Shown piece by piece: positions 136 through 44,167 of a DNA stretch of 64,000 nt. Where the stretch lies: NCBI GenBank assembly GCA_049322915.1, contig JBMOPW010000027.1, positions 1,558 to 65,557 on the forward strand, given 5' to 3'. Numbering within the stretch: position 1 is the first letter of the stretch; each line of letters opens with the position of its first letter. The DNA is from Candidatus Zhuqueibacterota bacterium (GTDB lineage Bacteria; Zhuqueibacterota; Zhuqueibacteria; Thermofontimicrobiales; Thermofontimicrobiaceae). The translations under genes and the position numbers were made by a program. Under the pieces are notes generated by a model, which worked only from the letters and a program-made list of their open reading frames with translations, did not search any database and was not told the DNA's origin.

Positions 136-1614
136 ATGTCAATGGACACTCATCATTACATCGGAATCGATCTTGGCGCCTCGAGCGGAAGGACTGTACT
201 GGGAACACTGAAAAACAAATTTCTCACCGTGAGAGAATTGAACCGCTTTCACAACGGCGCTGTGAATCTGAACGGCAGCCTGCATTGGAATGTGGTTGAA
301 TTATTCGAACACATGAAACGCGGTCTGGCCGCTTGCGCGCGGGACGTTACCACCAGCCCGGACAGCATGGCGCTGGACACCTGGGGCGTGGATTATGGCC
401 TGCTCGCCAGCGACGGCAACTTGCTGGGGTTGCCCTATGCCTATCGCGATGGCAGGACCAACCGGGCTATGGAGCAGTTCTTCGAGCGAATCCCACGGGA
501 GCGCGTCTACGCGCTGACCGGCAACCAGTTCATGCAATTCAATACCCTGTTTCAATTGTTCGCCATGATGCGGGATAAAAGTCCACTGGCGCGCATTGTT
601 TCGGATGTGCTGTTCATGCCGGATCTGTTCAACTACCTGTTCACCGGCGTAAAAAAGTCCGAGTTCACCATTTCAACCACATCGCAGATTTACAATCCCC
701 TGAAGAATGACTGGGATGAAGAATTGCTGGGCGCGCTGGGATTGCCAAAAACCATCATGCAGGAAATTGTTCAGCCAGGCGCAGTCATCGGGATGCTATC
801 GGACTATATTTGTCAGGAAGTTGGCCTGGCCCCTGTGCCGGTCATTGCCAGCGCCAGTCACGATACAGGCTCTGCTGTGGCTGCGACGCCGGCCGGCAGC
901 GATCCCAACTGGCTGTACATCAGTTCCGGCACATGGTCGCTGATGGGCGTGGAAGCGCCGGCGCCGATTATCAATGAAAAAACGCTGCGATTCAATTTCA
1001 CCAATGAAGGCGGCATCGAGGGCACGTTCCGCTTCCTCAAAAATGTCGCAGGGTTGTGGCTGGTTCAGGAATGTCGCCGCATCTGGGCGAAGGAGAAGGA
1101 CATCACATTCGGGGAACTGACGGACATGGCTGCCGGAGCTGCGCCGTTTCAGGCGATGATCGATCCCGATCACCACGATTTTTTGGCTCCGCAGGATATG
1201 CCTCAGGCGATTCGCGCGTTCATCAAAAAGTCCGGCCAGAAAGTGGGGAATGCGCCCGGCGATATTGTCCGCGTTGCGCTGGAAAGTCTGGCCCTCAAAT
1301 ATCGGTTTGTGCTGGATCAACTGAAACAGGTGCATGCCACGCCCATCAATAAAATTCACATCATTGGCGGCGGCACGCAAAACACGCTGTTGTGTCAGTT
1401 CACCGCCAACGCCACAGGTCTGCCGGTCGTGGCTGGTCCTGTGGAAGCCACGGCCATTGGCAACATCCTCACTCAGGCTTTGGGAATGGGCCACGTGAAC
1501 AGCCATGCGGAAATTCGAGAGATCATCCGCAATTCTTTTCAGCTCGAACAGTATGAGCCCCGGGAATGCCAGCCGTGGGATAACGCCTACGAGCGGTTTC
1601 GGGAGATTCTGTGA
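136..1614 (+). CDS. rhaB: Rhamnulokinase (FGGY carbohydrate kinase family)
   Basis: 492 aa. N-terminal IGIDLGASSGR sugar-kinase motif. Overall FGGY architecture with rhamnulokinase-like N-terminus. Sits upstream of a GH78 rhamnosidase. Confidence 0.8.
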   Translation: MSMDTHHYIGIDLGASSGRTVLGTLKNKFLTVRELNRFHNGAVNLNGSLHWNVVELFEHMKRGLAACARDVTTSPDSMALDTWGVDYGLLASDGNLLGLPYAYRDGRTNRAMEQFFERIPRERVYALTGNQFMQFNTLFQLFAMMRDKSPLARIVSDVLFMPDLFNYLFTGVKKSEFTISTTSQIYNPLKNDWDEELLGALGLPKTIMQEIVQPGAVIGMLSDYICQEVGLAPVPVIASASHDTGSAVAATPAGSDPNWLYISSGTWSLMGVEAPAPIINEKTLRFNFTNEGGIEGTFRFLKNVAGLWLVQECRRIWAKEKDITFGELTDMAAGAAPFQAMIDPDHHDFLAPQDMPQAIRAFIKKSGQKVGNAPGDIVRVALESLALKYRFVLDQLKQVHATPINKIHIIGGGTQNTLLCQFTANATGLPVVAGPVEATAIGNILTQALGMGHVNSHAEIREIIRNSFQLEQYEPRECQPWDNAYERFREIL

Positions 1615-1776
1615 TCGCTGCGAACGGACAGTCGATTCAGCAAAGATTGATCTTGACGGAATCGTATTTTCATGAAAGTGATCGGGGACGCATGGTTGCC
1701 ACCCATCATGTATGAAAGAGAACGCCGGCGCGTTGCATTTCGGGCCGGGAAAAGAAAATTGAAAGGAACAGGGACT

Positions 1777-4473
1777 ATGATTCATCCGCCAGTGAATTTA
1801 AAATGCGAATACCTCGCTAATCCTCTGGGCGTTGTCACGCCTTCGCCCCGCTTCTCCTGGCTTATCGCTGCTGATGCAAGGAATAGCACTCAGGCCAGGT
1901 GCCAGATACGGGTCGCAACCCAGGAAAATCTGCTGCATGAAGGACGCGCCGATATGTGGGACAGCGGCGTCTTGGAGACAGATAATAATTTCAATATCCC
2001 GTACGAGGGAAAGGCGTTGCAGGCCGGCGCTCGCTATTTCTGGTGCGCGCGCTGGTGGGACAATCATGGAACAGCCAGCGACTGGAGCAGCAGCGCATTT
2101 TTTGAAATGGGGGTGATGAATTCGCAGGACTGGCAGGCGGGGTGGATCACAAAAAAGGAGTTCGTGGAATTTGATATCAAGCGCAATGAGCCGATCGTGA
2201 AACAACTGGGGCCGTTTCGCCAGGCCTTTGCTGCGTATTTCAGAAAAGAATTTTCCGCCGCCGGACAGATCAAAAAGGCGCGCGTTCATGTGTGCGGGCT
2301 GGGCTATTACGAGCTGCGGATCAATGGCGGGAAAGTCGGCGATCACGTGCTGGACCCGGCGCAGACCGACTATTTCAAGACAGCGCTCTACGCCACCCAC
2401 GACGTGACGCAGATGATTCGGGAAAACAACGCCCTCGGCGTCATGGTTGGCAATGGCCGCCATGTGAAGAACTACTTTTATCCGGATCCCAAACTGATCC
2501 TGCAACTTCATCTGGATTATGAAAATGGCCGCACCGAACTCATCACGACTGATGAAACGTGGAAAGTCTCCCACGGCCCGTTGATGGAGAATGGCATTTA
2601 TTTCGGCGAGAAATACGACGCCCGATTGGAAATGCCTGGCTGGGACGCTCCCCAATTCGATGATGTGAGCTGGGAACAGGCGCTGGTCACCACCGGGCCG
2701 GAACTTGCGCCGCAGATGATGCCGCCGATCCGCGTCATGGACACGCTGCGACCGATGCGGATTATCAATCCCGGGCCGGGGCGGTATGTGTACGATTTCG
2801 GTCAGAATTTCAGCGGATGGGTGAAGCTGTCCGTCCGCGGCCCGCGCGGGACCGAGGTGACGCTTCGATTCGCCGAACTGATTGAAAACGATGGCAATTT
2901 GAACACGTTCCCCAACGGGAACGCGGAAGTCACGGACACCTACATTCTCAGCGGTTGCGGCGACGAAGTGTACGAGCCGCGTTTCACCTATCACGGATTT
3001 CGCTACGTCGAAGTCGCCGGTTTTCCCGGCGTCCCGACGCTGAAGAATCTGGATGGAAAATTCATCCACTCCGATGTCAGCGAGGCCGGCGATTTTCACT
3101 GTTCGCATCAGCTCATCAACGCGATTCACCGCAATACCCTGTGGGGCCAGCTCTGCAATTTAATGAGCATCCCCACGGACTGCGCGCAGCGCGACGAACG
3201 ACAGGGCTGGATGGGAGACGCACAACTGGCTGCCGAGGAAGCCATTCTGAATTTCGACATGGCCGCATTTTTCACCAATTATCTGCGGCAAATTCAGTTA
3301 GCCCAGGCCGATGACGGCGGTCTGCCCGATGTCGTTCCGCCCTATTGGAATATGTTGCGCCCGGCGGACCCGGCATGGGGTACCGCCTATATCACCATCG
3401 CCTGGTATGTCTATTTTTATTACGGGGACACGCGGATTCTGAGCCAGCATTTTGACTCAATGCGGCGCTACGTGGATTTTCTCACCGCTCAATCGGACAA
3501 TTTCATCATTCGCCATCTGGGCAAATACGGCGATTGGTGTCCCCCGGGCAGCATCATTCCGAAAAAGACGCCGGTGGAATTGACCTCAACGTGGTACTAT
3601 TATTCGGATGTGTTTCATCTGGCAAAGATGGCCGCGGTGCTGGGCAAGCGCGACGAGTTCACCCATCTCACCCATCTTACGGAGGAGATTAAATCTGCCT
3701 TCAACAAAGAATTTTTGAAAGACGACCAGTATGCAGCGCACCGCGTCAGCCCGGTGGACATCGCGCCGAATCAAACGGCCAACGCGCTTCCGCTGTACCT
3801 GGACATGGTGCCTGATGACAAAATAGCGACCATTGTGGAGAAATTGCTTCTGGCCGTCACGCGCGACCAGGACTATCACCTGGACACAGGGATCATCGGC
3901 ACCCGATATCTGTTCGATGTATTGACGCGCCATCATTTCGAAGATGTGGCGTTCAAAATTGCCACGCAGGAATCGTACCCTTCCTGGGGCTACATGCTCG
4001 CGGAAGGCGCGACAACGCTGTGGGAGCGCTGGGAGAAGATCACCGGCGGTGGCATGAATTCGCACAATCACATCATGCTGGGCAGCGTGGATGCCTGGTT
4101 TTACAAGTCCGTCGCCGGCATTCGCTGCCTGACCCCGGGCTGGGGCCGCGTGGAATTCCGACCGATCATGGTGAAAGACTTGAACTATGCAACCGCGCGG
4201 CTGAAAACCTTGCGCGGGGAATTCTTCATTTCATGGGTGAAAGAAACGTCCCGGCTCACAATGATTATTGCCGCGCCGGTGGGCGTCACGGCAGAAATTT
4301 ATCTGCCGCGACTCTGGCAGCACAGCCACATCAGCGAAGGAGGAACGCAACTCAGTACTCAGAAAAAGCGCATCGCCACAGGCGGCGCCGTTCAATTCAT
4401 CCGGGAAGAAGACAGGTACTTCGTTTTTGAAGCAGGCAGCGGCTATTACCAGTTCACCGTGGAGCCGGCATAA
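1777..4473 (+). CDS. Alpha-L-rhamnosidase, glycoside hydrolase family 78
   Basis: About 900 aa with bacterial rhamnosidase N-terminal and six-hairpin catalytic regions (LKCEYLANPLGV.., large C-terminal domain). Start moved to ATG 1777 (MIHPPVNL); the ORF-track upstream extension is likely spurious. Confidence 0.8.
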   Translation: MIHPPVNLKCEYLANPLGVVTPSPRFSWLIAADARNSTQARCQIRVATQENLLHEGRADMWDSGVLETDNNFNIPYEGKALQAGARYFWCARWWDNHGTASDWSSSAFFEMGVMNSQDWQAGWITKKEFVEFDIKRNEPIVKQLGPFRQAFAAYFRKEFSAAGQIKKARVHVCGLGYYELRINGGKVGDHVLDPAQTDYFKTALYATHDVTQMIRENNALGVMVGNGRHVKNYFYPDPKLILQLHLDYENGRTELITTDETWKVSHGPLMENGIYFGEKYDARLEMPGWDAPQFDDVSWEQALVTTGPELAPQMMPPIRVMDTLRPMRIINPGPGRYVYDFGQNFSGWVKLSVRGPRGTEVTLRFAELIENDGNLNTFPNGNAEVTDTYILSGCGDEVYEPRFTYHGFRYVEVAGFPGVPTLKNLDGKFIHSDVSEAGDFHCSHQLINAIHRNTLWGQLCNLMSIPTDCAQRDERQGWMGDAQLAAEEAILNFDMAAFFTNYLRQIQLAQADDGGLPDVVPPYWNMLRPADPAWGTAYITIAWYVYFYYGDTRILSQHFDSMRRYVDFLTAQSDNFIIRHLGKYGDWCPPGSIIPKKTPVELTSTWYYYSDVFHLAKMAAVLGKRDEFTHLTHLTEEIKSAFNKEFLKDDQYAAHRVSPVDIAPNQTANALPLYLDMVPDDKIATIVEKLLLAVTRDQDYHLDTGIIGTRYLFDVLTRHHFEDVAFKIATQESYPSWGYMLAEGATTLWERWEKITGGGMNSHNHIMLGSVDAWFYKSVAGIRCLTPGWGRVEFRPIMVKDLNYATARLKTLRGEFFISWVKETSRLTMIIAAPVGVTAEIYLPRLWQHSHISEGGTQLSTQKKRIATGGAVQFIREEDRYFVFEAGSGYYQFTVEPA

Positions 4474-4522
4474 CGCCGGGCCATCGATTGATAACCGCTC
4501 GGGAATCAGGGAAATCGACCCA

Positions 4523-5761
4523 ATGACACGGCAATCCGAAACACGAACTGTGTATGACTACATAAAATCGAACTGGCAGAATACGATTCGGTATGAACCC
4601 GATGACCAGGGAACGCTGCTGGGTTTGCCTTTTCCATACACCGTCCCCTGCCAGAGCGAAAAAACCATGCAGAACTATTTCTACTGGGATACCTATTTCA
4701 CCAATGTCGGTCTGCTGCTGCAGGGATTTGTTGACCTTGCTCGTAACAATGCGGACAATCTTTTGTTCCTGCTCCGGAAATATGGATTTGTGCCCAATGG
4801 GAATTGCACCTATTTTTTGAACCGCTCGCAGCCGCCCTATCTTGCGCTGATGGTCAGGGAAATTTTCGATCGGACCGGGGACAAAACCTGGCTCCACCGC
4901 GCCTATGACGCCCTCAAAGTTGAGTACGATTTCTGGGATAAAAAGCGGAGCACACCGGTCGGACTGAATCGCCATTTTCATCACGCCACGGCGGAGGAGC
5001 TTCACCACTTTATTGATCACGATGTGAAAGACCGCGTTCCTGTCACTGCGAGCGATCCGGCCGGGAAAATCCGCGCGGCTGAGCACTATCTGGCTGAGGC
5101 AGAGACTGGCTGGGATTTCACTCCGAGATTTGAAGGTCGCGCATCGGATTTCGTCCCGGTGGATTTGAACAGCCTGTTGTATCAGGTCGAATTGAACCTT
5201 GCCCGGTTCAGTCAGGAATTGGGGATTGGCGAAGAGGCTCACTGGCTATCGCTGGCCGAGGCCCGGCGGACGCTGTTCTCGCGTTTTTTATGGGATGAAG
5301 AAAACGGCTTTTTCTATGACTACGATTTCGTCCCGCGCCGGCGGAGCGCCGTCGCTTCTCTGGCTGGCTTTCATCCGTTATGGACAAGGATGGCGACGCC
5401 GGCCCAGGCCGAGGCGGTGAGGTCCAACCTCTCCAAATTCGAATTCGACTTTGGGATGGCAGTGTGCGAGCAGGGCGGTCGAAGCAGCCTGTACCAGTGG
5501 GATTTCCCGAATGGCTGGCCTCCGCTTTATTACATCGTGATTCAGGGATTGAGGAACTACGGCTATGAACAGGACGCCCGACGGATTGCCGGGAAATTCG
5601 TCCGGGTCGTCAGCGCGAATTTCCAGGCAACGGGTGATTTGTGGGAAAAATACAATGCCGTGGACGGCTCGATCCGGGTGATTAATGAGTACGACATGCC
5701 GGCCATGCTGGGCTGGACTGCCGGCGTTTTCGTCCATTGCATCCATTTTTTAGAGCAGTGA
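4523..5761 (+). CDS. GH37 trehalase-like glycoside hydrolase
   Basis: Both GH37 signature regions are present: NYFYWDTYF and QWDFPNGWPPL. Start set at ATG 4523 (MTRQSET). Short overlap with the rhamnosidase end. Confidence 0.7.
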   Translation: MTRQSETRTVYDYIKSNWQNTIRYEPDDQGTLLGLPFPYTVPCQSEKTMQNYFYWDTYFTNVGLLLQGFVDLARNNADNLLFLLRKYGFVPNGNCTYFLNRSQPPYLALMVREIFDRTGDKTWLHRAYDALKVEYDFWDKKRSTPVGLNRHFHHATAEELHHFIDHDVKDRVPVTASDPAGKIRAAEHYLAEAETGWDFTPRFEGRASDFVPVDLNSLLYQVELNLARFSQELGIGEEAHWLSLAEARRTLFSRFLWDEENGFFYDYDFVPRRRSAVASLAGFHPLWTRMATPAQAEAVRSNLSKFEFDFGMAVCEQGGRSSLYQWDFPNGWPPLYYIVIQGLRNYGYEQDARRIAGKFVRVVSANFQATGDLWEKYNAVDGSIRVINEYDMPAMLGWTAGVFVHCIHFLEQ

Positions 5762-5780
5762 TTTTGCTGCCGCCTATCCA

Positions 5781-7373
5781 TTATCCCTGACGATACTCTG
5801 CCCAGCGAATTCCTAATTTCCGCATGCGCGCGCGGAGGGTGTGAGGATTGATTTTCAGCAATGTTGCAGCTCCGGACGCGCCTTCAATTTTTCCCTGTGT
5901 TTTTGCCAACGCCCGAATGATATGCTTTTTCATGGCTTCGTCCAATGAACAAATTTCCTGTGGTATTTGGAAATAGTTCGCTTCGGCTTTTACCTGATTA
6001 TGATTTGGCTCAATTTTTTCTGACCAGCCCAGCGCCTTGCTCACCTCCAATTGATTCCCATCCCCAAGCAGCGCTGCGCGATCGATGACAGCGCCAAGCT
6101 CGCGAATATTGCCAGGCCAGGGATATGCAGCGAGCGTCCCAATGTCTTCTTCCGAGGGTAGCTGAACCGGCAAGCCGAAGCGGATGGCCGAGCGCCGGGC
6201 AAAATGCTCGGCTAATTCTTTGAGGTCTTCGAGGCGCTCCCGCAGTGGAGGCAGGAAAATGGGGAAGGTCGCGATTCGATACCACAGATCGTCGCGGAAT
6301 TGTCCGTGCGCCACCATCGACGTCAGATCGCGATGAGTGGCCAGGACAATGCGGACATTCACTTTAAGCGGATGTTTGCCGCCAACCCGCTCCAACCAGC
6401 CATCCTGCAGAACGCGTAAAAACCGAACCTGCGCCGGCAGGGGCAGTTCGGCCACTTCATCTAAAAACAGCGTGCCGCCATCAGCCCGTTCGAACCAGCC
6501 CTTTCGCGATTCAACGGCGCCGGTGAATGCGCCGCGTTCATGGCCAAAAAGCTGGGAGTCGATGAGCTCTGAGGGAATCGCTCCGCAGTTCACGCGGATG
6601 AAAGGCCCCTCTTTTCGGCTGGAATTATTGTGAATAGCCCTGGCGATGACTTCTTTCCCTGTGCCTGTCTCTCCGAAAATCAACACGGGCACATCGGATT
6701 TCGCCACCAACATGACCCTCTCCATTACTTTCTTCAAACCCCCTTCGGCTCCGACGATCACGTCACCGATTTCTTTCCGACTCAATTTCGTGAGCAGTGT
6801 TGTTTTATCCGCTTCCGCAGCTTCCCGTAAACTGATAATTTCCCTGAGCTGGCTATCGTTTTTTAAGGCCACGGAAAATGGCTCGATTAAAGTCCGCATC
6901 AATTCCGCATGATAGCGCGTGAAGGTCTGTCCTTGTTGAGCGACGAAGACGAGAAATGGATAGATGCCATCGTCTATCGTCAGCGCCGTGGATAATATAT
7001 CGAGGTGCGACGGAATGGCCGTGGGGACAAGAAGCGAGAAAATGGACTCGCAATGGTGATCCTGATTTCGGTGCGCGATCTGTCGGGTGCGAAACAAGCT
7101 CATCAACCGTTTTTTTTCCGCGGAGTTGATTTTTGTTGAAGCGAAATACGCAGCGTCTGATTCGGACTCGCCGAATCCAATCGCGACAGTGTCCAGAGTG
7201 GCATGAGCGTCATCGAGCATTCGAATGAAAATTTGTGAAATGGGCATGTGTTGCCGCAGTACGAGCGCGATCTGGGGGGTCGATTCTGTAATTTTAATAT
7301 GGCGGCATGCTTCACGATAGGCGTCTAACAGAATGGGCCGAAATTTTTCCATAGTCTTCCCTTGATATTTCAT
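5781..7373 (-). CDS. Sigma-54-dependent transcriptional activator (GAF sensor + AAA+ sigma-54 interaction domain + Fis-type HTH)
   Basis: Walker A GETGTGKE, GAFTGA sigma-54 contact motif, C-terminal HTH, and a ~190-aa N-terminal GAF-like region. Divergent from the sbp-cysTWA operon. Confidence 0.8.
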   Translation of the reverse strand: MKYQGKTMEKFRPILLDAYREACRHIKITESTPQIALVLRQHMPISQIFIRMLDDAHATLDTVAIGFGESESDAAYFASTKINSAEKKRLMSLFRTRQIAHRNQDHHCESIFSLLVPTAIPSHLDILSTALTIDDGIYPFLVFVAQQGQTFTRYHAELMRTLIEPFSVALKNDSQLREIISLREAAEADKTTLLTKLSRKEIGDVIVGAEGGLKKVMERVMLVAKSDVPVLIFGETGTGKEVIARAIHNNSSRKEGPFIRVNCGAIPSELIDSQLFGHERGAFTGAVESRKGWFERADGGTLFLDEVAELPLPAQVRFLRVLQDGWLERVGGKHPLKVNVRIVLATHRDLTSMVAHGQFRDDLWYRIATFPIFLPPLRERLEDLKELAEHFARRSAIRFGLPVQLPSEEDIGTLAAYPWPGNIRELGAVIDRAALLGDGNQLEVSKALGWSEKIEPNHNQVKAEANYFQIPQEICSLDEAMKKHIIRALAKTQGKIEGASGAATLLKINPHTLRARMRKLGIRWAEYRQG

Positions 7374-7559
7374 TGATGTCTGTGATATATGCTGGAATTT
7401 GCTGTTAAATATTACGGAATCATTTGCATAAAAGCAAGATTAAATTTTCAACGCATTGGAATTTAATGAAATAATCGGGATGAATTTCTCTGGTATGGCG
7501 ATTGTAAAGACTGAAATACCAATGAGACTGAAAAATGAACTTCATCAGGAGGAATGACA

Positions 7560-8591
7560 ATGAAAAAGGTATGGAGTGTATTCGCTGTTGTTTTGCTCTG
7601 CGGTCTATGCCAGGTCTGCGGTAAAAAGGAAATGCAACCCAGCGATACGATAACGCTGGGCGCTTATACGGTGCCGAAGGAGGCGTATCAGAAGGAGATC
7701 ATTCCGGCATTTCAGGCGTATTGGCTTGAAAAGACCGGGAAGCGGGTTCAATTCAATGAATCGTACATTGCCTCAGGCGCCCAGTCGCGGGCAATCATCG
7801 CCGGTTTCGAAGCAGATGTTGCAGCGCTTTCGCTGGAGAGCGATGTGGATCGGCTCGTGGAAGCAGGGCTCATCGCTCACGAGTGGAAAAAGAAACAGTA
7901 TGATGGCATGGTATCGCGATCGGTGGTCGCGATTGCGTTTCGCCAGAGGAATCCGAAACAGATTCGGGATTGGGTCGATCTGGCGCGTCCCGGGGTGAGT
8001 GTGCTTTATCCCAGTCCCAAAACATCGGGCGGCGCCATGTGGGACGTGAACGCTATTTACGGGGCTGGATTGAAAATGAGTGAGCTAGAAACAGGGCAGG
8101 CGGATCCTGCGGCAGCAATGGTGCTGTTAAAGGCGATCCAAAAAAATGTGAAAGTGATGGATAATTCCGGCCGGGCTTCTGTGACAACGTTTGAAAACGG
8201 AGTTGGCGATGCCCTGGTGACTTATGAAAATGAGATTTTGCTGCGAATAAAACAGGGACGAACGATGGAATACATCGTTCCGGCGGCCACAATTCTCATC
8301 GAAAATCCCATCGCTGTCATCGACAGGAATGTGGACAGGCACGGCAATCGCGAAGTGGTTGAGGCATTTGTCGCCTTTGTCCTGACGAAACACGTGCAGC
8401 GTATCTTTGCAGACTACGGCTTTCGTTCGGTGGATGAGGAAGTGAATCGCGAATATGCCGATAAATTTCCGCAGCCGCAGCACTTGTTCGACATCAATTA
8501 TTTAGGTGGCTGGAAACTGGTGCAGGAGAACCTCTATGGCGCCAGGGGTGTCTGGTCGCGTATCATAGAAGAGTCAGCTCATGAAAATTAA
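7560..8591 (+). CDS. sbp: Sulfate/thiosulfate ABC transporter periplasmic substrate-binding protein
   Basis: Strong similarity pattern to Sbp/CysP (NPKQIRDW, GVSVLYPSPKTSGGAMWD, TFENGVGDALVTYENE). Signal peptide present. AGGAGG Shine-Dalgarno 7 nt upstream of ATG 7560. Confidence 0.8.
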   Translation: MKKVWSVFAVVLLCGLCQVCGKKEMQPSDTITLGAYTVPKEAYQKEIIPAFQAYWLEKTGKRVQFNESYIASGAQSRAIIAGFEADVAALSLESDVDRLVEAGLIAHEWKKKQYDGMVSRSVVAIAFRQRNPKQIRDWVDLARPGVSVLYPSPKTSGGAMWDVNAIYGAGLKMSELETGQADPAAAMVLLKAIQKNVKVMDNSGRASVTTFENGVGDALVTYENEILLRIKQGRTMEYIVPAATILIENPIAVIDRNVDRHGNREVVEAFVAFVLTKHVQRIFADYGFRSVDEEVNREYADKFPQPQHLFDINYLGGWKLVQENLYGARGVWSRIIEESAHEN

Positions 8592-9420
8592 ACCGCACCT
8601 TTTTCCGTTGCCGCCAAAGGAGGACATCATCCTGCGGAGTCTCTCCTTTTTCTACATCGGGCTGCTCATTATTCTTCCGATTGTCGCGTTGATGAGCCAG
8701 GCATTCCATGGGGGGATTGCTTCGCTTTGGGCGAATATCTCCAGCCCGCAATCTGTGTATTCGCTCAAACTCACCTTTACAGCGGCCCTGTTCATGGTGG
8801 TCATCAATATCCTGACCGGAACAGCGACGGCCTGGGTGATGGTCCGCTATTCGTTCCCGCTCAAAAGTTTGATGAACTCGCTCATCGATTTGCCATTCGC
8901 CATACCCACCGTGGTAACCGGCATCATGCTTGTCGCCATGTACGGGCCGGATAGTTTCATCGGCGAATTCTTCAGTCGCAGGGGAATCGAAATTATCTTC
9001 AACAAGCCCGGCATTATTCTGGCGCTGCTGTACGTCACTTTCCCGTTCGTCGTGCGGACAGTTCAACCTGTGTTGCTGGAAATGGAGGTTGATATGGAGG
9101 AAGCGGCAAAGACGCTGGGTGCATCCACCGGGACGATATTTTTTCGGGTCGTTCTGCCCACACTGCTTCCGGCAATTCTCACCGGCGCCGCCCTTTCTTT
9201 CAGCCGAGCGCTGGGCGAGTTTGGCTCCATTGCCATTGTCTCGGGGAATATCCCATTTAAGACCCAGGTCGCGCCGGTGTATATCTATGGTGAACTTGAA
9301 AGTTACAATCAGCAGGGCGCCATGGGCATTTCAGTGGTATTGCTCATTAGTTCCTTTGTGATTCTCACCATGCTCAACATCATTCAAATCTGGAGTCGAC
9401 GGCATGAAAAAGCTCAGTGA
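8581..9420 (+). CDS. cysT: Sulfate ABC transporter permease CysT
   Basis: 279-aa polytopic permease with the EAA-like ABC permease loop. Overlaps sbp and cysW, indicating an operon. Confidence 0.8.
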   Translation: MKIKPHLFPLPPKEDIILRSLSFFYIGLLIILPIVALMSQAFHGGIASLWANISSPQSVYSLKLTFTAALFMVVINILTGTATAWVMVRYSFPLKSLMNSLIDLPFAIPTVVTGIMLVAMYGPDSFIGEFFSRRGIEIIFNKPGIILALLYVTFPFVVRTVQPVLLEMEVDMEEAAKTLGASTGTIFFRVVLPTLLPAILTGAALSFSRALGEFGSIAIVSGNIPFKTQVAPVYIYGELESYNQQGAMGISVVLLISSFVILTMLNIIQIWSRRHEKAQ

Positions 9421-10240
9421 TTTTCGGAAGAGAAGCGCTTCATATTCATGGGGTAAAATTATCCTGATCATTCTGGTGGTGGGCTGGTTCCTCGTGTTGA
9501 CCATGCTGCCCCTGTATGGCATCATCCGGGAGGCATGGAAAAACGGCTGGCAGAATTTTGTAACGTCCATTGTCGCGACGGAATCGCTGCATGCGCTGTT
9601 GCTGACGTTGCGGATCACGATTGGCGCTGTCGTCATCAATACTTTCTTTGGGGTGATACTGGCGCTCGTCCTGGTGAAACATACCTTTCGCGGCAAGTTA
9701 TTGTTCGAGGGTTTGGTCGATTTGCCCTTTGCCGTGTCGCCGGTTGTGGCTGGATTCATGTTCATCATCCTGTTCGGTCCCAATGGCTGGATCGGCAACT
9801 GGTTGGAACTGCACCAGTTGAAAATTGTCTATGCATTTCCGGGCATGCTCATCGCAACATTATTTGTCACCCTGCCGTTCGTCGCGCGGGAAGTGATGCC
9901 GGTACTCAGAGAATTTGGACTGCAACAGGAAGAGGCAGCCTATATTTTAGGCGCGTCCAGATGGCAGACATTCTGGAAAGTGACTCTGCCTTCGATCAAA
10001 TGGGGGCTTGCCTATGGAGTGACGCTGACCATCGCCCGTTCCATCGGTGAATTCGGCGCCGTATTGGTTGTGAGCGGCAGTATTATTCACAAAACACAGA
10101 CAGCCACGTTGCACATTCATCAGGAGTTCACTGATTTCAATTACGCCGGCGCGTTTTCATCGGCGATTGTGCTGGCGGCGATTTCATTTATACTGTTAAC
10201 CACCATGCAGCGCGTGTACAAACGGAAAGGGGTGAATTAA
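9404..10240 (+). CDS. cysW: Sulfate ABC transporter permease CysW
   Basis: 278-aa permease, paralogous to CysT, translationally coupled to it. Confidence 0.8.
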   Translation: MKKLSDFRKRSASYSWGKIILIILVVGWFLVLTMLPLYGIIREAWKNGWQNFVTSIVATESLHALLLTLRITIGAVVINTFFGVILALVLVKHTFRGKLLFEGLVDLPFAVSPVVAGFMFIILFGPNGWIGNWLELHQLKIVYAFPGMLIATLFVTLPFVAREVMPVLREFGLQQEEAAYILGASRWQTFWKVTLPSIKWGLAYGVTLTIARSIGEFGAVLVVSGSIIHKTQTATLHIHQEFTDFNYAGAFSSAIVLAAISFILLTTMQRVYKRKGVN

Positions 10241-10242
10241 AT

Positions 10243-11343
10243 ATGGCCATCGTCGTTAAAAATATTCATAAAAAATTTGGCGATTTCGTCGCCGTGGATA
10301 ATGTCAGCTTCGAGGTGAAGGAAGGCGAGTTGGTCGCGCTGTTGGGTCCCAGCGGTTGCGGAAAAAGCACAATCCTCCGTATCATTGCCGGGTTGGAAAC
10401 GCCAGACCGCGGGGAAATTTTTCTGACTGGAAAAGCAGTGACCGGACTCGCTCCGCAGAAGCGAAAAGTCGGTTTTGTTTTTCAACACTACGCTCTTTTC
10501 AAACACATGAATGTGGAGAAAAATATCGCCTTTGGCATGGAAATTCAGAAGAAATCCAGGGCCCATATCGCCGCGCATGTGAAAGAGCTGATCAACCTGG
10601 TCAAACTGCAGGGCTATGAAAAGCATTACCCGGACCAGCTTTCCGGTGGACAGCGCCAGCGGGTGGCGCTCGCAAGGGCATTGGCGACTGAGCCCAAAGT
10701 GCTGCTGCTGGACGAACCGTTCGGCGCCCTGGACGCAAAAGTCCGGGAGAATCTGGCGGAGTGGCTGAGAGATTTTCACAACAAGCTCCATATTACCAGC
10801 ATCTTTGTGACGCATGACCAGAACGAAGCGATCGAAATTGCGGATAAAATTATTGTGATCAATAAAGGCAGTGTGGCGCAGCAAGGGGACGCGCGGCAGG
10901 TATACGAGCATCCGGATAATAAATTCGTGGCGAGCTTCATCGGGCAGGTGAATGTCATCGATGCCGTTGTGAAGTCAGGGGCCATGCAGATCAAGGGCAC
11001 GAACCTGAATCTCAAAATGCCGGAAAACAAAACGCTGAAGGATGGCGATGTTGTTCTGCTCGTGCGTCCCGAGGATGTTTTCATCAATCCCGAAGGTATT
11101 GAAAATAGCGATGTGCCGGCGAGGATTAAGCGCGTTCATTACCGGGGGAATCATAACGAAATCGATTGTGCGGTGAATGGGCTGGAGGTCAAGCTGATCG
11201 ATTATAAAAGAAATGCTGAGTCGGACGCCTGGCTGGAGGATCAAAAAATTTTTCTCAATTTCCGGTCGTTCCGCGTTTTTCAGGCGGAAGAGGGACATGA
11301 ACGATTGCACGAAAGATTGAAAGAGACGGGCTACATCGAATAG
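10243..11343 (+). CDS. cysA: Sulfate/thiosulfate ABC transporter ATP-binding protein CysA
   Basis: Walker A GPSGCGKST, LSGGQRQR signature, Walker B LLLDEP, C-terminal TOBE-like domain. Confidence 0.85.
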   Translation: MAIVVKNIHKKFGDFVAVDNVSFEVKEGELVALLGPSGCGKSTILRIIAGLETPDRGEIFLTGKAVTGLAPQKRKVGFVFQHYALFKHMNVEKNIAFGMEIQKKSRAHIAAHVKELINLVKLQGYEKHYPDQLSGGQRQRVALARALATEPKVLLLDEPFGALDAKVRENLAEWLRDFHNKLHITSIFVTHDQNEAIEIADKIIVINKGSVAQQGDARQVYEHPDNKFVASFIGQVNVIDAVVKSGAMQIKGTNLNLKMPENKTLKDGDVVLLVRPEDVFINPEGIENSDVPARIKRVHYRGNHNEIDCAVNGLEVKLIDYKRNAESDAWLEDQKIFLNFRSFRVFQAEEGHERLHERLKETGYIE

Positions 11344-11521
11344 CAGGAAAGCTGGCTGGTGCGGCAGTTGAGCCGGGAGTTACAAAGATGGTCTGTTCCG
11401 AAAATAGCCCTTCGGTTGCGCCGGTATTGAAAAATCATCCATGAGAACGGGACACCCAAGTTCGGGGATTCCGTGCGAAACCGAAAATGACAATAATTCA
11501 AAACCAATTAAGGAGTAGCGT

Positions 11522-12781
11522 ATGACCAGAATGACAATTAAATTTCTTGCGATGGCAATGATCGTATTGACAGGCACGTTATTACTTCAGGCTCAGGACA
11601 TGTCGTCTTCATTGAAAATCACCGGCCAGATCCGGATGCGCAGCGAAATGGATGACCGTGATTTCAACGGGGATACCCGGGCGAATGATTTCACCCTGTT
11701 GCGGAGCCGTATAAATTTCACGGGCGCGTTCACAGATAAAATAGTCGCATTTGTTCAACTGCAGGACTCGCGCTTGTTTGGCGGTGAGGACACCAGCGGC
11801 GCAACTGGCACGCTCAAAAATACGGCCAATGTGGACATGCGATTGGGGTATGTGCAGATTAACCGATTGTTCTGGCGCGGATTAAATTTCAAATTTGGCA
11901 GAATGGAATTTGCCAGAGGCTCGGAGCGACTGTTGGGGTCCAATCCCTGGAGCAATGTCAGCCGCGCCTTTGACGGAGGCGTCCTGTCGCTCGTGTTCCG
12001 CCGATTCCAGATAGACCTCATGCATGTAACTTTGTACGAATCGAATCGGGTTGAAAATACAACGGATGGCGATCAGGCCTTATCCGGCATGTGGACGACA
12101 GCCCGTTTATCCGATTTGAATGTGCTGGAATTGTACGCGCTGAAAGATACGGATCAACAGATTGATGCGGACGCTCGGAATAAAATGGAACGAGTGACGC
12201 TTGGAAGTCGTTTCAAAGGTAAACTGGGACAGATGGATATCGAATCTGAGTTCAATTGGCAAACAGGGACAATGAATTATTCCAGGGACATTTCGGCTTT
12301 TTACATCACACAATCTTTCGGATATACCTTGCCCACAGCACTGAAGCCCAATATCAAACTTGCCTTCGATTATTTATCCGGCGATAAATCGGATACCGAC
12401 GCCTATGAATGTTTCAACACCCTTTACCCGGCGACGCATCGCTATTTCGGTTATATGGATTATTTCAAGGACATCCCGCGGCACACCCGCGATCTGGGTT
12501 TGCGGGATTGGATGGTGATGACAAAATTCGAGTTGATGAAGAATCTCAGCCTGAAGCTGGACGGTCATTATTTTCAGCTTGCTCAAGTTGCAGTGCTCGA
12601 AGACGGTGCACGGTCGCGACACATGGGCGCGGAGATCGATCTGACGCTGGATTTCACCTATCGCGAAAATGTCCAGTTCAAATTGGGCGGCTCTGTTTTT
12701 CTGCCAGACGCGGTGTATGACGAATGGAAAGGCGGAGACCCTTCCTACTGGTTCTTCGGCCAGACAACCGTTGATTTCTAA
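11522..12781 (+). CDS. Outer-membrane beta-barrel protein (alginate-export/porin-like)
   Basis: Signal peptide, alternating amphipathic beta-strand pattern, C-terminal aromatic residue (..TTVDF). Immediately downstream of the sulfate transporter. Confidence 0.5.
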   Translation: MTRMTIKFLAMAMIVLTGTLLLQAQDMSSSLKITGQIRMRSEMDDRDFNGDTRANDFTLLRSRINFTGAFTDKIVAFVQLQDSRLFGGEDTSGATGTLKNTANVDMRLGYVQINRLFWRGLNFKFGRMEFARGSERLLGSNPWSNVSRAFDGGVLSLVFRRFQIDLMHVTLYESNRVENTTDGDQALSGMWTTARLSDLNVLELYALKDTDQQIDADARNKMERVTLGSRFKGKLGQMDIESEFNWQTGTMNYSRDISAFYITQSFGYTLPTALKPNIKLAFDYLSGDKSDTDAYECFNTLYPATHRYFGYMDYFKDIPRHTRDLGLRDWMVMTKFELMKNLSLKLDGHYFQLAQVAVLEDGARSRHMGAEIDLTLDFTYRENVQFKLGGSVFLPDAVYDEWKGGDPSYWFFGQTTVDF

Positions 12782-12885
12782 ATCGAGATTGAAAAATTTC
12801 CATTGTGAGGGGCCATTGCTTTTCAATCCAGTCGCTTTTTCATTGTAAAATAGAGCGATGAAATTCGATGCGAGTAACAGGCAAA

Positions 12886-13028
12886 GTAACCGTTCACTGG
12901 TTCATCGTTCAAGGATAATGATAACGTACCGTTGATGACGGACTATTTGAGCATAAAAAATGTTTCGCGCAACCAATATCCACAACCCCAACCGGGAATC
13001 CTGAACCCGAAACCTGTGAACAGCTACC
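12886..13028 (+). repeat. Copy A of a ~140-nt conserved element (5' leader of the alpha-galactosidase-like gene)
   Basis: About 85% identical to the reverse complement of 43837-43970. Terminal inverted repeats GTAACCGTTCA / TGAACNGCTACC. Shared core AATGATAACGTACNGTTGATGACGGACTATTTGANCATAAAAAATG. Confidence 0.6.
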
Positions 13029-13098
13029 AGGTAACTGAATGAAGATTTTACAATTTCAGGGGGATTTATATCTGCGTACTGGTAAAGAGGAGAAAAGT

Positions 13099-15330
13099 AT
13101 GGTCAACAAAAAAGGAGATTTGATCTTTCGGTCCAATTTCTGGCTATTGTGTCTCGCCATCATTTCTGGCGCGTTACTGTCCTGCGCAGCGCCGAACCTG
13201 GAAATGGAGGGCTGGTTCATTTCGCCCAATATTCAACAGGAAACGGTGGAGATTCGCCACGCGCAGTTGGGCATCCTCGTCAGGGAAGTCAAGCTCTACC
13301 TGAATCAGGGAGGGGCGCAGATCGAGTGTCGCCGCTGGAATGCGCAGCAGGGACAAGACCACCTGATCATTCAGACGCAAGAGCCTCAATCGCTGGAGTG
13401 GACGTTCCGGGTCACACAACATGGCGTAAATATCGATTGTTCAGCCGAAAATGGGCTCGTGTCCGGCGTGGCGCCGGCAACCAGGGACAGAATTCCGGCC
13501 CGACAGGAAGACCAGGACAATGGCGTCCTGTACACGTCCCTGGGATTGGTGACCGCGAGCAATATCCACTGTCTGTTTGATCGGAACACGGATACAATGA
13601 TTCAATTCGCGGAGAAGAGCCGCCTGACTCGCGGGACAGAGCAGGCGGATCGGATGACAATCGCCGTGCCGCTGAGCGCCGGCGATGAAATTTCAATCAT
13701 CCCGGATTATTACATCAACGTGCTGAAGCTGAAATTTTACAAACCGAAACCCACCCGATTTGTGACAGCGCCGGTTGCGTGGAGTAGCTGGTATTGTTAT
13801 TACATGGGGACGACCGAGGCGGATATGATTACCGAGACCGATGCTATCGCCAAACATCTCGCGTCCTACGGCCTGGAATATATTCAACTGGACGCCTGCT
13901 ACACCCTGGGCGATGACGCCAATTATCTCGACTGGACGAAAACGACCTTCCCCCATGGCGGCAAATGGCTGTTCGAATATATCAAGAACAAGGGGTTGAA
14001 ACCGGCGCTCTGGGTGAATATTTACGGTTCCAATTATGCCCAAGCGGAATGCGCGGACAAGTATCCGGAAAATTATTACCTGCGCGATGTGCGCGGCAAT
14101 CTCTCCGGCGCTTGCTGCACCGGCGACACCAGCGAGGTGAGGCTCGATTACACCAATCCCGAAGTCATTGAAAAACATCTGAAACCCATGTTCCGAATTT
14201 TGAAAGACGAATGGGGACTGGAGTATCTCAAAGATGCCGGCTGGGGGACATGGATGGATTTTTATGACAGGAACAAATCCATGGCGTTTGATTCCACCCG
14301 CGGCAGCCGGGAGGTCTATCTTGAAGCGCAGCGCGCGCTTCGGGAGACGCTGGGCGATGACGTCTACATTGGCGGCTGCGCCATGCACGAAGTCGGATTG
14401 GGCTTTGACATCTTCGACGGCTCGCGGATTGGCGCAGATGTGGCAGCGCACTGGTATCCTCCAAAACCGGGGGACATGTCCATGCAGACATTTTTCCATT
14501 CATTGTTCGGAGCGAATTATTTGAACAACATCACCTGGCACTGCGACCCGGATGCAGCCATGGTGCGAAATCCCCTGAGTCTGGAAGAGGGCAGGACCAT
14601 TGTCACGGCCATTGCGCTGACCGGCCAACTGTATATGGCCAGCGATTTTATGGCGCGATTGCCGGAGCGAAAATTGGAACTGTACCAGAAAACCATGCCC
14701 ACAACGCCGATTGTGCCCATCGATCTGTATCCCTACCGAATCGAATCCAACAAACGGGATGGCGTTGTCTGGTGTTGTCCGCAAGTGAAGGAATTCCCGA
14801 AAGCCATCGATCTGAAAGTGAACAATGTCACCGGCGTGTACGATGTGGCGGCTATGTTCAACTGGAGCGACGCGCCCGATACCTGCCAGTTGCGCTTCAG
14901 CGCTGATCTGGGTTTGGATGAAAATAAAGACTATGTGGTATTCGATTTCTGGGAACAGGCATATTTGGGAAAAGCGCGCGATCAAATCCGCGCGGTGGCG
15001 CCGGCGCATGGGACAAAGACGTTCGTCATTCGCGAGGCAAAAAATCAACCCCAGGTGCTGGCCAATTCGCGGCACATTACCGGAGACGTCAGCATGAAAG
15101 CAGTGAAATGGGATGCATCGCTGGCGACGTTGAGCGGCGCTTCGGAAATTGTTCCCGGCGCGCCCTATTCGCTATTCATTCATCTCCCCAATGGCGAACA
15201 GGTGAAAACCGTCACGGCGGATGTGGAGGTCTTGTATCACACGTCGGCCGGAGAACTGCTGGAAGTGAAATTGAGCGGCGTTTTGAAACCAGGTCAAAGC
15301 CATACTGTGAACTGGTCGGTTGCGTTTTGA
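13099..15330 (+). CDS. Glycoside hydrolase, alpha-galactosidase-like (clan GH-D, GH27/GH36-related)
   Basis: VAWSSWYCYY and GLEYIQLDACYT resemble the MGWNSWN and GYEYxxIDDCW regions of melibiase-type enzymes. Signal peptide present. Start set at ATG 13099, which has a good RBS. Confidence 0.45.
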   Translation: MVNKKGDLIFRSNFWLLCLAIISGALLSCAAPNLEMEGWFISPNIQQETVEIRHAQLGILVREVKLYLNQGGAQIECRRWNAQQGQDHLIIQTQEPQSLEWTFRVTQHGVNIDCSAENGLVSGVAPATRDRIPARQEDQDNGVLYTSLGLVTASNIHCLFDRNTDTMIQFAEKSRLTRGTEQADRMTIAVPLSAGDEISIIPDYYINVLKLKFYKPKPTRFVTAPVAWSSWYCYYMGTTEADMITETDAIAKHLASYGLEYIQLDACYTLGDDANYLDWTKTTFPHGGKWLFEYIKNKGLKPALWVNIYGSNYAQAECADKYPENYYLRDVRGNLSGACCTGDTSEVRLDYTNPEVIEKHLKPMFRILKDEWGLEYLKDAGWGTWMDFYDRNKSMAFDSTRGSREVYLEAQRALRETLGDDVYIGGCAMHEVGLGFDIFDGSRIGADVAAHWYPPKPGDMSMQTFFHSLFGANYLNNITWHCDPDAAMVRNPLSLEEGRTIVTAIALTGQLYMASDFMARLPERKLELYQKTMPTTPIVPIDLYPYRIESNKRDGVVWCCPQVKEFPKAIDLKVNNVTGVYDVAAMFNWSDAPDTCQLRFSADLGLDENKDYVVFDFWEQAYLGKARDQIRAVAPAHGTKTFVIREAKNQPQVLANSRHITGDVSMKAVKWDASLATLSGASEIVPGAPYSLFIHLPNGEQVKTVTADVEVLYHTSAGELLEVKLSGVLKPGQSHTVNWSVAF

Positions 15331-15346
15331 TTGAAATGAAAATGAC

Positions 15347-15383
15347 GCCCGGGCGTTGCTCCGGAATGCCCGGGCTTTTTTTT
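15347..15383 (+). terminator. Rho-independent terminator after the GH gene
   Basis: GCCCGGGC stem (15347-15354 with 15368-15375), 13-nt loop, then T8. Confidence 0.6.
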
Positions 15384-15405
15384 CGTGGGAGAGGAATTTG
15401 CATCG

Positions 15406-16110
15406 ATGAAAAAATTGCAGTGTGCCATGCTGCTTCTCGTCGCGTTGACCGTTTCGAATCTGCGAGCGTCGGAAGCATTGAAGGCGAATCCAGCGGTATT
15501 CGATTTCGGGACGATTCGGGAAGGGCAGCATGCGCCGGTCAGGTTTTCGGTGACCAATGCCGGGACGAAGTCCATCGCCATTCGTGAAATTCGCACCTTT
15601 GCTGCCTGCATCGAGTCGAAGCCGGCGCCGATGCAGACGCTGAAGCCAGGAGCAACGCTGGACCTCGGCTATGTGTTCGCAAGCCTGGGCTATGGCGGCG
15701 TTCGCGTCGACAAGAAAATTGAAATTCACTACAACGATTCCGATGTTTTGACGCTCCGGGTGACCGGCCAGGTATTGGCCCTGGAAAAATATCAGGCGCC
15801 GCCGGGTGAACTGGCGTATAATTTTTTTGCATTGGTGGATATTCGACCCAAAAAAGACTTTGTCTCGGAGCATATCCTCGGCGCGATTCACGTGCCGGAA
15901 GAAAAACTGTTTCGATGGGCTGATTCCATTGCCGGAAGCCTCAGCGGCGATCTGGTCATTTATCTCTGCTGTGGGGATGGCCAGCGCAGCGATGTCTGCG
16001 CGTTGCAATTGCGCAATAAAGGGTATCAGCAATTCGTCAGCCTGGTCGGCGGTTTGAAAGAATGGAAAATACAGCAAAACGAAAAATGGCTGATCCCCGG
16101 CGAACATTGA
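15406..16110 (+). CDS. DUF1573 domain protein fused to a rhodanese-like domain
   Basis: Signal peptide. N-terminal DUF1573-like beta region (FDFGTIREGQ..). C-terminal rhodanese fold with active-site Cys in CCGDGQRS. Confidence 0.6.
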   Translation: MKKLQCAMLLLVALTVSNLRASEALKANPAVFDFGTIREGQHAPVRFSVTNAGTKSIAIREIRTFAACIESKPAPMQTLKPGATLDLGYVFASLGYGGVRVDKKIEIHYNDSDVLTLRVTGQVLALEKYQAPPGELAYNFFALVDIRPKKDFVSEHILGAIHVPEEKLFRWADSIAGSLSGDLVIYLCCGDGQRSDVCALQLRNKGYQQFVSLVGGLKEWKIQQNEKWLIPGEH

Positions 16111-38189: not shown

Positions 38190-38624
38190 TTTAACATCGC
38201 AGGGGTATAACTTTCAGTGCACTTGACTGATGGGCGGGCACTGGAATCCAGAAAATTTGTGCATTAATTTAAAATCTGATTTTGTAGGAACGATCAGTGT
38301 GTTAAATGCCCATCAGCAAGTGATCGTTTCGTCAACCTTTGAATAGCACACGGATGAATTTTGCATCTGGAAATCTTCATGTGCGTCATTCATCTGCCAT
38401 GAAGACGCCGGGGCGCCAGGCCTGACTGGAGCAGAATGTAATTCATGAACGAAAATAAATGCACCAGGAGCAGTTATACCGCACTGATTTTTGTATTTAA
38501 ATCTCACAGCGGCTTCGAGACCTCGCGGCTAAAATTCAGTTGTGGATCCGAAACAGCCGCCAATCGATATCACAAAAAGGATAGAACACATTAAGTTACA
38601 CATCAACCTGTAAGCAGAAAGAGT

Positions 38625-39956: not shown

Positions 39957-40060
39957 TGGCTGCTCAGCGCGCAATGCCTGTTTGAGACGTTCAGGCTGAT
40001 CGCCTTACTTCAGAAAAGCTATTTATTTCCAAAAGCGTTTCAGTGGAATTCCTTACACAC

Positions 40061-42878: not shown

Positions 42879-43487
42879 TTAATCGAATGCCATGTCAGTC
42901 TTCCAGACTTCCCAGACTTTGCCGACAAGGTTTGGCCCTGGCGTGAGGATCATTTTTCCGGGCTTCCAACCGGATGGGGTCGCCTCAGTCCCCTTGCTCT
43001 TTCTGACCAACTGAAATGCCTGAATTTGCCGGAGCGTTTCATTGACGTTGCGACCGACCGGAGGAGTGAGCACTTCGAACGCCTGAACAACGCCGTCGGG
43101 ATCAATGAGGAATCGCCCCCTGGTTTCGACGCCGGCATTGTCATCGTAGATACCGTACACCGCGCCTACTTTTCCGCCGGCATCGGATAACATTGGAAAT
43201 GGTATGCCGCCTTTGACCATTTTGGATAATTCATGATCGTTCCACATTTTATGCACAAACATGCTGTCAATACTCATCGATAATACTTCAACACCGAGTT
43301 TTTGGAATTCGTTAAATTTCTCAGCAACTGCTGATACTTCAGTCGCTCAGACAAAGGTGAAATCACCGGGATAAAAACAGAGAACGACCCATTTTCCGAG
43401 ATAATCCGATAATTTCACATTGATGAACTTCCCCTTGTGATAGGCAGGGGCTACAAAATCTGGCGCTTTCTGTCCGACTTTAATCAT
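42879..43487 (-). CDS. Selenocysteine-containing peroxiredoxin (AhpC/Prx family), in-frame TGA at 43347-43349 read as Sec
   Basis: Two same-frame ORFs are separated by a single TGA exactly at the peroxidatic Cys codon: ..YPGDFTFV-[TGA][11 protein letters not shown].. versus Prx FTFVCPTE. The Prx fold continues to the C-terminus. GGAGG RBS lies 8 nt before ATG 43487. Resolving Cys is absent (ATPSGW instead of VCPANW). Confidence 0.7.
43321..43334 (-). other. Candidate bacterial SECIS-like hairpin
   Basis: mRNA UCAGC-AGUU-GCUGA hairpin starting 12 nt 3' of the UGA. The loop contains G and U. The short stem alone is weak evidence. Confidence 0.3.
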
Positions 43488-43836
43488 TTTAGATGCCTCC
43501 GTTTTAATGGTTTTTTCTTCAGTTGGTTTGTCTGGCGCCGGTTCACCGACCGGCCCGCCGGTTGGTCGAGCACAACCGGCTTTGACTTCCTCATCCATAG
43601 TCAATCTCCTATTTTATTGGTAAATGGTTAATGGAGAATTAGTTCGCTGTAATCAGTCGAATGAGTGAATTATAACATCAGAGTTAATTTTCAAATGGAG
43701 CGCTTTCCCTTTGCGGAGAACATTTAGCCGATTCAAGGAGGGAACGCATGTCATAATTTGCAGTCAGCGATGGACGTTGCTCTTTCAGATAATCGGCAGA
43801 ATGATTGGAAATCAATAATCGAACAAGGTTGAGAAA

Positions 43837-43970
43837 GGTAGCCGTTCACAGGTTCCGGGTTCAGCGTTCCCGGTTGGGGTTTTGGAGATGGTAGCGCGTA
43901 TCATTTTTTATGTTCAAATAGTCCGTCATCAACTGTACGTTATCATTGCCCGTGCACCCTGAACGGTTAC
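43837..43970 (-). repeat. Copy B of the ~140-nt conserved element (5' region of the Sec-peroxiredoxin gene)
   Basis: Reverse complement is about 85% identical to 12886-13028. Same orientation relative to its downstream gene as copy A. Confidence 0.6.
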
Positions 43971-44167
43971 TGAGACAGGCATAGCCAGCATGTTCGAATC
44001 ATCAGCAATGGCGCATCATTCCCTTCAGATGACGCGTTCGGTTTCGGGAGAGTCGAAGAGAATCTCAGAAATGGTTTAATCCAATTTTGTACTTATTTCA
44101 ATATAATAAAGATTCAGTTCCGATTCAAGAAATTTTTTTGTAATAAAACCAGTAAGGTGAATGAAAA

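Follow-up and report, generated by a model that had tools for sequence, protein, structure and literature searches.

Two diverged copies of a probable MITE in a Candidatus Zhuqueibacterota contig, and a family of insertions found by their ends

The stretch of Candidatus Zhuqueibacterota DNA analysed here (64,000 nucleotides, hereafter the window) carries two copies of a short element, each lying upstream of a gene and on the same strand as that gene. Copy A falls within a sugar-utilisation cluster (1522-16110) with genes for a rhamnosidase, a trehalase-like glycoside hydrolase (GH), a sigma-54 activator, an ABC sugar transporter, an alginate-export-type porin, and a GH27-like alpha-galactosidase; in a relative at 70% identity, a DUF2490 protein takes the place of the porin. 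Copy B is found between a gene for a SnoaL-like protein and a peroxiredoxin (Prx) gene. The initial annotation described both copies as immediately upstream of a gene in the same orientation; the orientation is as described, but the copies are less close to the genes than this implied. The end of copy A is 71 nt from the start of the alpha-galactosidase-like gene at 13099, which is the start annotated by NCBI and is also common to the ortholog, and the end of copy B is 239 nt from the first ATG of the Prx ORF (43598) and 350 nt from the ATG at 43487.

The Prx ORF (42879-43604, minus strand) has an in-frame TGA at 43347-43349, at the position of the peroxidatic cysteine (FTFV*ATE), consistent with selenocysteine. 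In a relative at 72% identity (locus L144) the same Prx is split into two called genes (4806-5057 and 5142-5525), and the UGA is therefore conserved. Elsewhere in the window, at 38529-39974, ORFs of 481 amino acids (minus strand) and 443 amino acids (plus strand) overlap, the minus-strand ORF having no Pfam match. The features of the two copies are as follows.

12878..12885, no strand: copy A duplication, upstream half CAGGCAAA; 6/8 match to 13028-13035
12886..13027, plus strand: probable MITE, copy A, 142 nt, non-coding; 87% identity to copy B; fits GTAACCGTTCA-N(95-125)-GTGAACNGCTAC; no frame in common with copy B
12886..12899, plus strand: left terminal inverted repeat of copy A, GTAACCGTTCACTG; one mismatch to the family consensus GTARCCGTTCACGG
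13014..13027, minus strand: right terminal inverted repeat of copy A, GTAGCTGTTCACAG read on the minus strand; two mismatches to the consensus
13028..13035, no strand: copy A duplication, downstream half CAGGTAAC; 6/8 match to 12878-12885
43830..43837, no strand: copy B duplication, downstream half CTTTCTCA on the minus strand; 7/8 match to 43978-43971
43838..43970, minus strand: probable MITE, copy B, 133 nt, non-coding; defined by alignment to copy A, ends, and flanks
43838..43851, plus strand: right terminal inverted repeat of copy B, GTAGCCGTTCACAG read on the plus strand; one mismatch to the consensus
43957..43970, minus strand: left terminal inverted repeat of copy B, GTAACCGTTCAGGG; one mismatch to the consensus
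43971..43978, no strand: copy B duplication, element-upstream half CTGTCTCA on the minus strand; 7/8 match to 43837-43830

MAFFT alignment of copy A (12886-13027, plus strand) with the reverse complement of 43838-43970 gave 116 identical columns among 133 aligned (87%), with nine gap columns and both copies aligning end to end; the initial annotation had put the similarity at about 85% over some 135 nt, and the alignment bears this out. The difference in length between the copies is due to one 8-nt indel near the 5' end, corresponding to one additional GTTCAnnG unit in copy A, and a separate 1-nt indel, rather than to a single 9-nt insertion in copy A as had been proposed. The coordinates first assigned (12886-13028 and 43837-43970) were correct to within one base: the true ends are 13027 and 43838, because the extra base shared at the end of each copy is part of the flanking 8-bp duplication and is excluded from the element. 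In a repeat search, copies A and B were the sole long inverted-repeat pair in the 64-kb window. Their shared 20-mer GTTGATGACGGACTATTTGA occurs twice in the window, against 0.01 occurrences expected by chance, and their conserved blocks have no further occurrence within it. An exact scan of the genome contig collection for this 20-mer gave 0 matches, and the single metagenome contig match (L002), within an ornithine-carbamoyltransferase-like coding sequence, was discarded as a chance match, so that these collections yielded no other member of the window subfamily.

Logan contigs of the run SRR32167788 end or start inside both copies (window positions 12960, 12946, and 43918). Such breaks fit repeats, because assemblers break at repeats. 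Since the contigs break even though copies A and B have no run of 31 identical bases in common, further and closer copies of the element are suggested to be present in that sample.

Neither copy has coding capacity, and the longest frames are disrupted differently by indels in A and in B; a 35-amino-acid ORF in copy A, considered as a possible small protein, was rejected because it is frame-shifted in copy B. Both copies open with GTAACCGTTCA and close with GTGAACNGCTAC. The terminal inverted repeat noticed in the initial annotation is thus real, although imperfect (GTAACCGTTCAC versus GTAGC[C/T]GTTCAC in both copies). It continues, with mismatches, to about 28 nt, and is followed by tandem GGTTCA-like units. 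An internal CCGGG...CCCGG hairpin, also noted previously, is intact in copy B but not in copy A.

The initial annotation had left two readings open, a regulatory RNA or a MITE, and had named target-site duplications and many copies at unrelated sites as marks of the latter. Both were found. Each window copy is flanked by an 8-bp duplication, imperfect in either case (6/8 for copy A, 7/8 for copy B). These decayed duplications, together with 13% divergence, indels, and mismatches in the inverted repeats, suggest that the two copies in the window are old insertions that have probably lost their mobility.

The copies at unrelated sites came from a search of public genomes and viral contigs with a pattern consisting only of the GTAACCGTTCA and GTGAACNGCTAC ends separated by a gap of 95-125 nt. 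It matched at least 118 loci in species-representative genomes, against about two expected by chance. Most hosts among the matches listed are Planctomycetota MAGs (Pirellulaceae, Thermoguttaceae, Planctomycetaceae, Phycisphaerae, and Mariniblastus), the others including Desulfobacterota or 'Deltaproteobacteria', Fermentibacteria, and Nitrospinota. For elements with both flanks among these matches, the adjoining 8 bp were identical at 8/8 positions in 65 of 121 and at 7/8 in 21 of 121. Control flanks moved outward by 8 nt matched at 0-5 of 8 positions (mode 2, maximum 5/8); flank identity, tested at shifted offsets as a possible artefact, was not equally frequent there. At 42% GC, against 56% for the loci, the target that is duplicated is comparatively rich in AT. 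Perfect duplications likewise flank further elements, 71-236 nt in length, that have these ends. Among the matches listed, 95 of 123 insertions are intergenic, and their orientation is random with respect to the genes on either side (27, 23, 20, and 19 over the four configurations).

Clustering by interior separated the matches listed into 32 subfamilies with unrelated interiors and only the ends in common, and the consensus GTARCCGTTCACGG holds over all 32. Invariance of its first 11 and last 12 positions is circular, because these are set by the search pattern; positions 12-14, outside the searched left-end pattern, are nevertheless conserved as C-G-G. The window copies form a two-member subfamily of their own among these matches, and their ends are closest to those of elements from Fermentibacteria, Nitrospinota, and Desulfobacterota, which also bear GGTTCA repeats. 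One subfamily of 136 nt has at least 65 copies, with a mean identity of 94% and mostly perfect duplications, in a single Planctomycetota MAG, Dive96_bin4.48 (contigs JAJSAJ01), where it is spread over about 70 of the loci L006-L123 and includes truncated copies; this looks like a recent burst of transposition. Searches of plasmids with blastn, with either the element alone or concatenated subfamily representatives, returned nothing relevant.

Among the viral contigs, the element at L005 5918-6057 combines an interior that is AT-rich and wholly unrelated with a perfect 8-bp duplication, GTTAATTG, and two further elements likewise have perfect duplications. The L005 element (contig IMGVR_UViG_3300009537_000029, region 4106-6057) overlaps the final 27 nt of a 612-amino-acid ORF with no Pfam match, and the insertion therefore supplies the C-terminus and stop codon of that ORF. 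A separate observation concerns Planctomycetota subfamilies that are otherwise unrelated yet share an internal palindromic module, GGGGTCAGACCC-ATTTTCGGCG ... CGCCGAAAAT-GGGTCTGACCCC (e.g., L006 214-349, L023 5793-5928, L037 6382-6524, and L018 5378-5514); the module might serve as a second binding site, or it might be a repeat captured from the host.

The duplications also bear on how such elements came to be dispersed. They might have been repeats that spread without duplicating a target site, either REP/REPIN elements moved by a RAYT tyrosine transposase or products of local segmental duplication, and in favour of the former one end of the element reads GTAG, like the GTAG tag of REP superfamilies that include those of Planctomycetes (PMC3733652). 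Fixed 8-bp duplications, seen in 86 of 121 elements among the matches listed, are not made by IS200/IS605-type transposition, by RAYT, or by segmental duplication, and the elements are 120-150 nt long with terminal inverted repeats, as opposed to the palindromes of 20-40 nt that constitute REPs. We consider both routes ruled out by the duplication statistics and give them practically no weight.

Comparison with the closest relatives in the protein collection showed that gene order is kept at both sites, whereas the element and its ends are absent. At site A, the 190 nt that precede the gene in locus L124 (GH 85% identical at the amino acid level) contain no remnant of the element, and in L125 and L126 (70%) the spacer before the GH gene is just 63 nt. 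At site B, the spacer from the SnoaL-like gene to Prx is 322 nt in L144 and L145 (72%), versus 569 nt in the window, and the sequences of these loci align to just short of the insertion point and then proceed without the element. SnoaL-like orthologous loci without the element were seen at 79% and 72% amino acid identity; at the 70-85% spanned by all of these comparisons, relatives are too distant for an exact empty site to be defined at the nucleotide level. The relative at 79% (L143, JGI 3300005077) has two end-like motifs, GTAACTATTCAG and GTAACTATTCAC, 21 nt apart at 4487-4519, directly 3' of the SnoaL-like stop codon and about 80 nt before the contig stops. A related mobile element may thus lie near the L143 site that is orthologous to copy B.

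A promoter-like site at 44128-44100 on the minus strand (TTGAAT-17-TATATT) is conserved, along with the leader that follows it, with L144 and L145. Because the block conserved with L144 includes this promoter-like site and lies upstream of copy B, the selenocysteine peroxiredoxin gene probably has this copy within its long leader, in which case gene and copy would be co-transcribed. At site A the arrangement is reversed: copy A is upstream of the only leader block common to L124 (13040-13098), whereas copy B is downstream of the conserved block, so the positions of the two copies are not equivalent. Even without the MITE the Prx leader, at about 250 nt, would be unusually long, and roughly 200 nt downstream of the SnoaL-like gene are conserved.

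These placements can be set against the other reading left open by the initial annotation, in which the two stretches are a structured cis-regulatory or small RNA of 5' leaders, formed by a long closing stem and internal hairpins. Its attractions are that A and B are both oriented like the gene downstream, that their termini are able to pair, and that copy B, lying 3' of a promoter-like block conserved in a relative, is probably transcribed. Two copies share an orientation by chance 50% of the time, however, and the wider family has no such preference: orientation is random and interiors are unrelated among the matches listed. No match to Rfam was obtained at the gathering score or at E<=1. 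Fold z-scores are weak (0.0 to -2.0), and folding of the sense strand is no better than that of the antisense strand. The covariation looked for was not seen, none of 26 predicted pairs having a compensatory change, while in the terminal stem pairing is lost where A and B differ (RNAalifold; with two sequences only, a weak test). An RNA of this kind would also have to be reconciled with the lack of the element in the orthologous intergenic regions of relatives and with the different placement of A and B relative to conserved leader sequence. We regard it as very improbable and already largely refuted. Inverted repeats, duplications, at least 118 insertions, and random orientation strongly support the MITE.

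The presence of copy B in a probable leader suggests a narrower possibility, that of a co-opted MITE, in which transposed copies now provide a hairpin, promoter, or RNase site and thereby change how the alpha-galactosidase-like gene or the selenocysteine peroxiredoxin gene is expressed. Effects on neighbouring transcripts are known for other MITE families, Correia and ERIC among them, and copy B sits between the conserved promoter-like block (44128-44100) and the Prx start. A consensus scan found no promoter-like or terminator-like sites inside A or B, the copies are decaying through indels and inverted-repeat mismatches, and the same gene arrangement occurs in relatives without the element. 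Co-option is therefore improbable in our estimation, if less so than a dedicated RNA, and the window copies appear to have no host function of their own.

We conclude, with a probability of roughly 0.93, that both stretches are copies of a non-autonomous DNA transposon, a MITE. They combine a lack of coding capacity, terminal inverted repeats, and a duplication of fixed length with occurrence of the family at many unrelated sites (at least 118 loci) and absence from orthologous loci of relatives. Such a family is in itself an ordinary kind of feature; its end sequences are new to the searchable literature, in which the end 12-mers retrieved only unrelated primers or cDNA. Movement would have involved a transposase encoded elsewhere that binds the ends, terminal inverted repeats of about 14 bp with the consensus GTA[A/G]CCGTTCACGG, with the subterminal GGTTCA-like repeats of the window subfamily probably acting as extra binding sites, and that then excises or copies the element. 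Insertion at a target cut with an 8-bp stagger, followed by repair of the stagger, would yield the 8-bp direct duplication. The ends and the duplication lead us to infer mobilisation by a DDE transposase of the IS66 family, probably one from the single-ORF ISBst12 group.

The search for an autonomous element bounded by these ends covered the window, about 0.8 Mb of loci, plasmids, and viral contigs and found none, and for this reason the assignment to a transposase family is indirect. The loci held no credible inverted-repeat pairs 0.4-6 kb apart with a duplication, no ORF with the Pfam domain DDE_Tnp_IS66 adjoining an orphan end, and, in six-frame translation, no WAHxRR, which we take to be an IS66 transposase motif. 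Among the ten large ORFs of the window there is no transposase. Several candidates were set aside on inspection: ORFs beside orphan ends are housekeeping genes (e.g., MutS, LpxK, and adenylosuccinate synthetase), and what looked like recurring 'orphan' ends in the Dive96 MAG proved to be the 136-nt MITE in truncated form. A scan of viral contigs with 15-mer ends added a few more MITEs and otherwise gave chance matches in coding sequences, including a false 'pair' of ends 3.6 kb apart in L137. Three small ORFs and the 612-amino-acid ORF beside a viral-contig MITE resembled the layout of IS66, but Pfam identified no transposase domain in them.

The likeness to IS66 lies in the ends and the duplication. 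Left ends of the family read GTAAC and right ends GTAGC, forming imperfect inverted repeats of the kind published for IS66 and ISDge4, and the duplication is of 8 bp. To our knowledge, IS66 is the sole family in the ISfinder table to pair 'GTAA' ends with duplications of 8-9 bp. Inverted repeats of the IS66 family begin GTAAGCG in ISPsk01 (PMC12888890); ISDge4, of the single-ORF ISBst12 group, has imperfect 14-nt repeats, GTAACTGCTCAGCA and GTGACTACTCAGCA, and an 8-bp duplication (PMC12898284); and the IS66 members ISPpa5a and ISPpa7 also make 8-bp duplications (PMC3281130). An IS66/ISBst12-type partner therefore seems somewhat more probable than any other source of mobilisation, by a little over even odds. 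In one of the loci that carry the family, a sibling MITE of 213 nt (L094 2847-3059) has ends, GTAACTACTCAG, that are 11/12 identical to the repeats of ISDge4, and a perfect 8-bp duplication, GGAGAAAT.

A broader proposal departs from this in the enzyme and in the fate of some copies. The ends GTARCCGTTCACGG and the 8-bp duplication would define a large, undescribed MITE superfamily extending over several phyla, moved by a divergent or unknown transposase rather than a recognised IS66 member, with some copies, such as B, co-opted as transcribed regulatory hairpins. We consider this unlikely, at about one chance in ten.

For the window, the MITE reading leaves one candidate regulatory RNA fewer: what had looked like 'conserved leaders' are relics of a transposon, to be annotated as repeats. 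More widely, the signature GTAACCGTTCA ... GTGAACNGCTAC plus an 8-bp duplication can be used to find insertions in Planctomycetota, Desulfobacterota, Fermentibacteria, Nitrospinota, and Candidatus Zhuqueibacterota MAGs and in viral contigs. Elements of this kind break up short-read assemblies and can pass for non-coding RNAs; in uncultured lineages they are also a sign that transposases are, or once were, active.

Three known systems invite comparison. REP/REPIN sequences with the GTAG tag are, like the present elements, small intergenic palindromic repeats that occur in Planctomycetes and share the one GTAG end; they differ in that REPs measure 20-40 nt, depend on tyrosine (HUH) transposases, and leave no duplication, whereas the elements described here measure 120-150 nt and are flanked by 8-bp duplications. 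IS66 and ISBst12 elements resemble the family in their 5'-GTAA ends, imperfect inverted repeats of about 14 nt, and 8-bp duplication: the ISDge4 repeat GTAACTGCTCAGCA matches the family consensus GTAACCGTTCACGG at 9 of the first 12 positions (PMC12898284), and the ISPsk01 repeat GTAAGCGTCC matches the family end at 8/10 (PMC12888890). Unlike IS66, the family has no transposase gene between its ends, the likeness being one of ends and duplication length alone. The closest parallels in general form are the bacterial MITEs Correia/NEMIS, RUP, ERIC, and Nezha, which are likewise about 70-300 bp long, non-coding, bounded by inverted repeats and a fixed-length duplication, present in many mostly intergenic copies, and served by a transposase in trans. 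The present family is set apart from these by its GTA[A/G]CCGTTCACGG ends with an 8-bp duplication, and by its occurrence in several phyla with, among the matches listed, 32 unrelated interiors.
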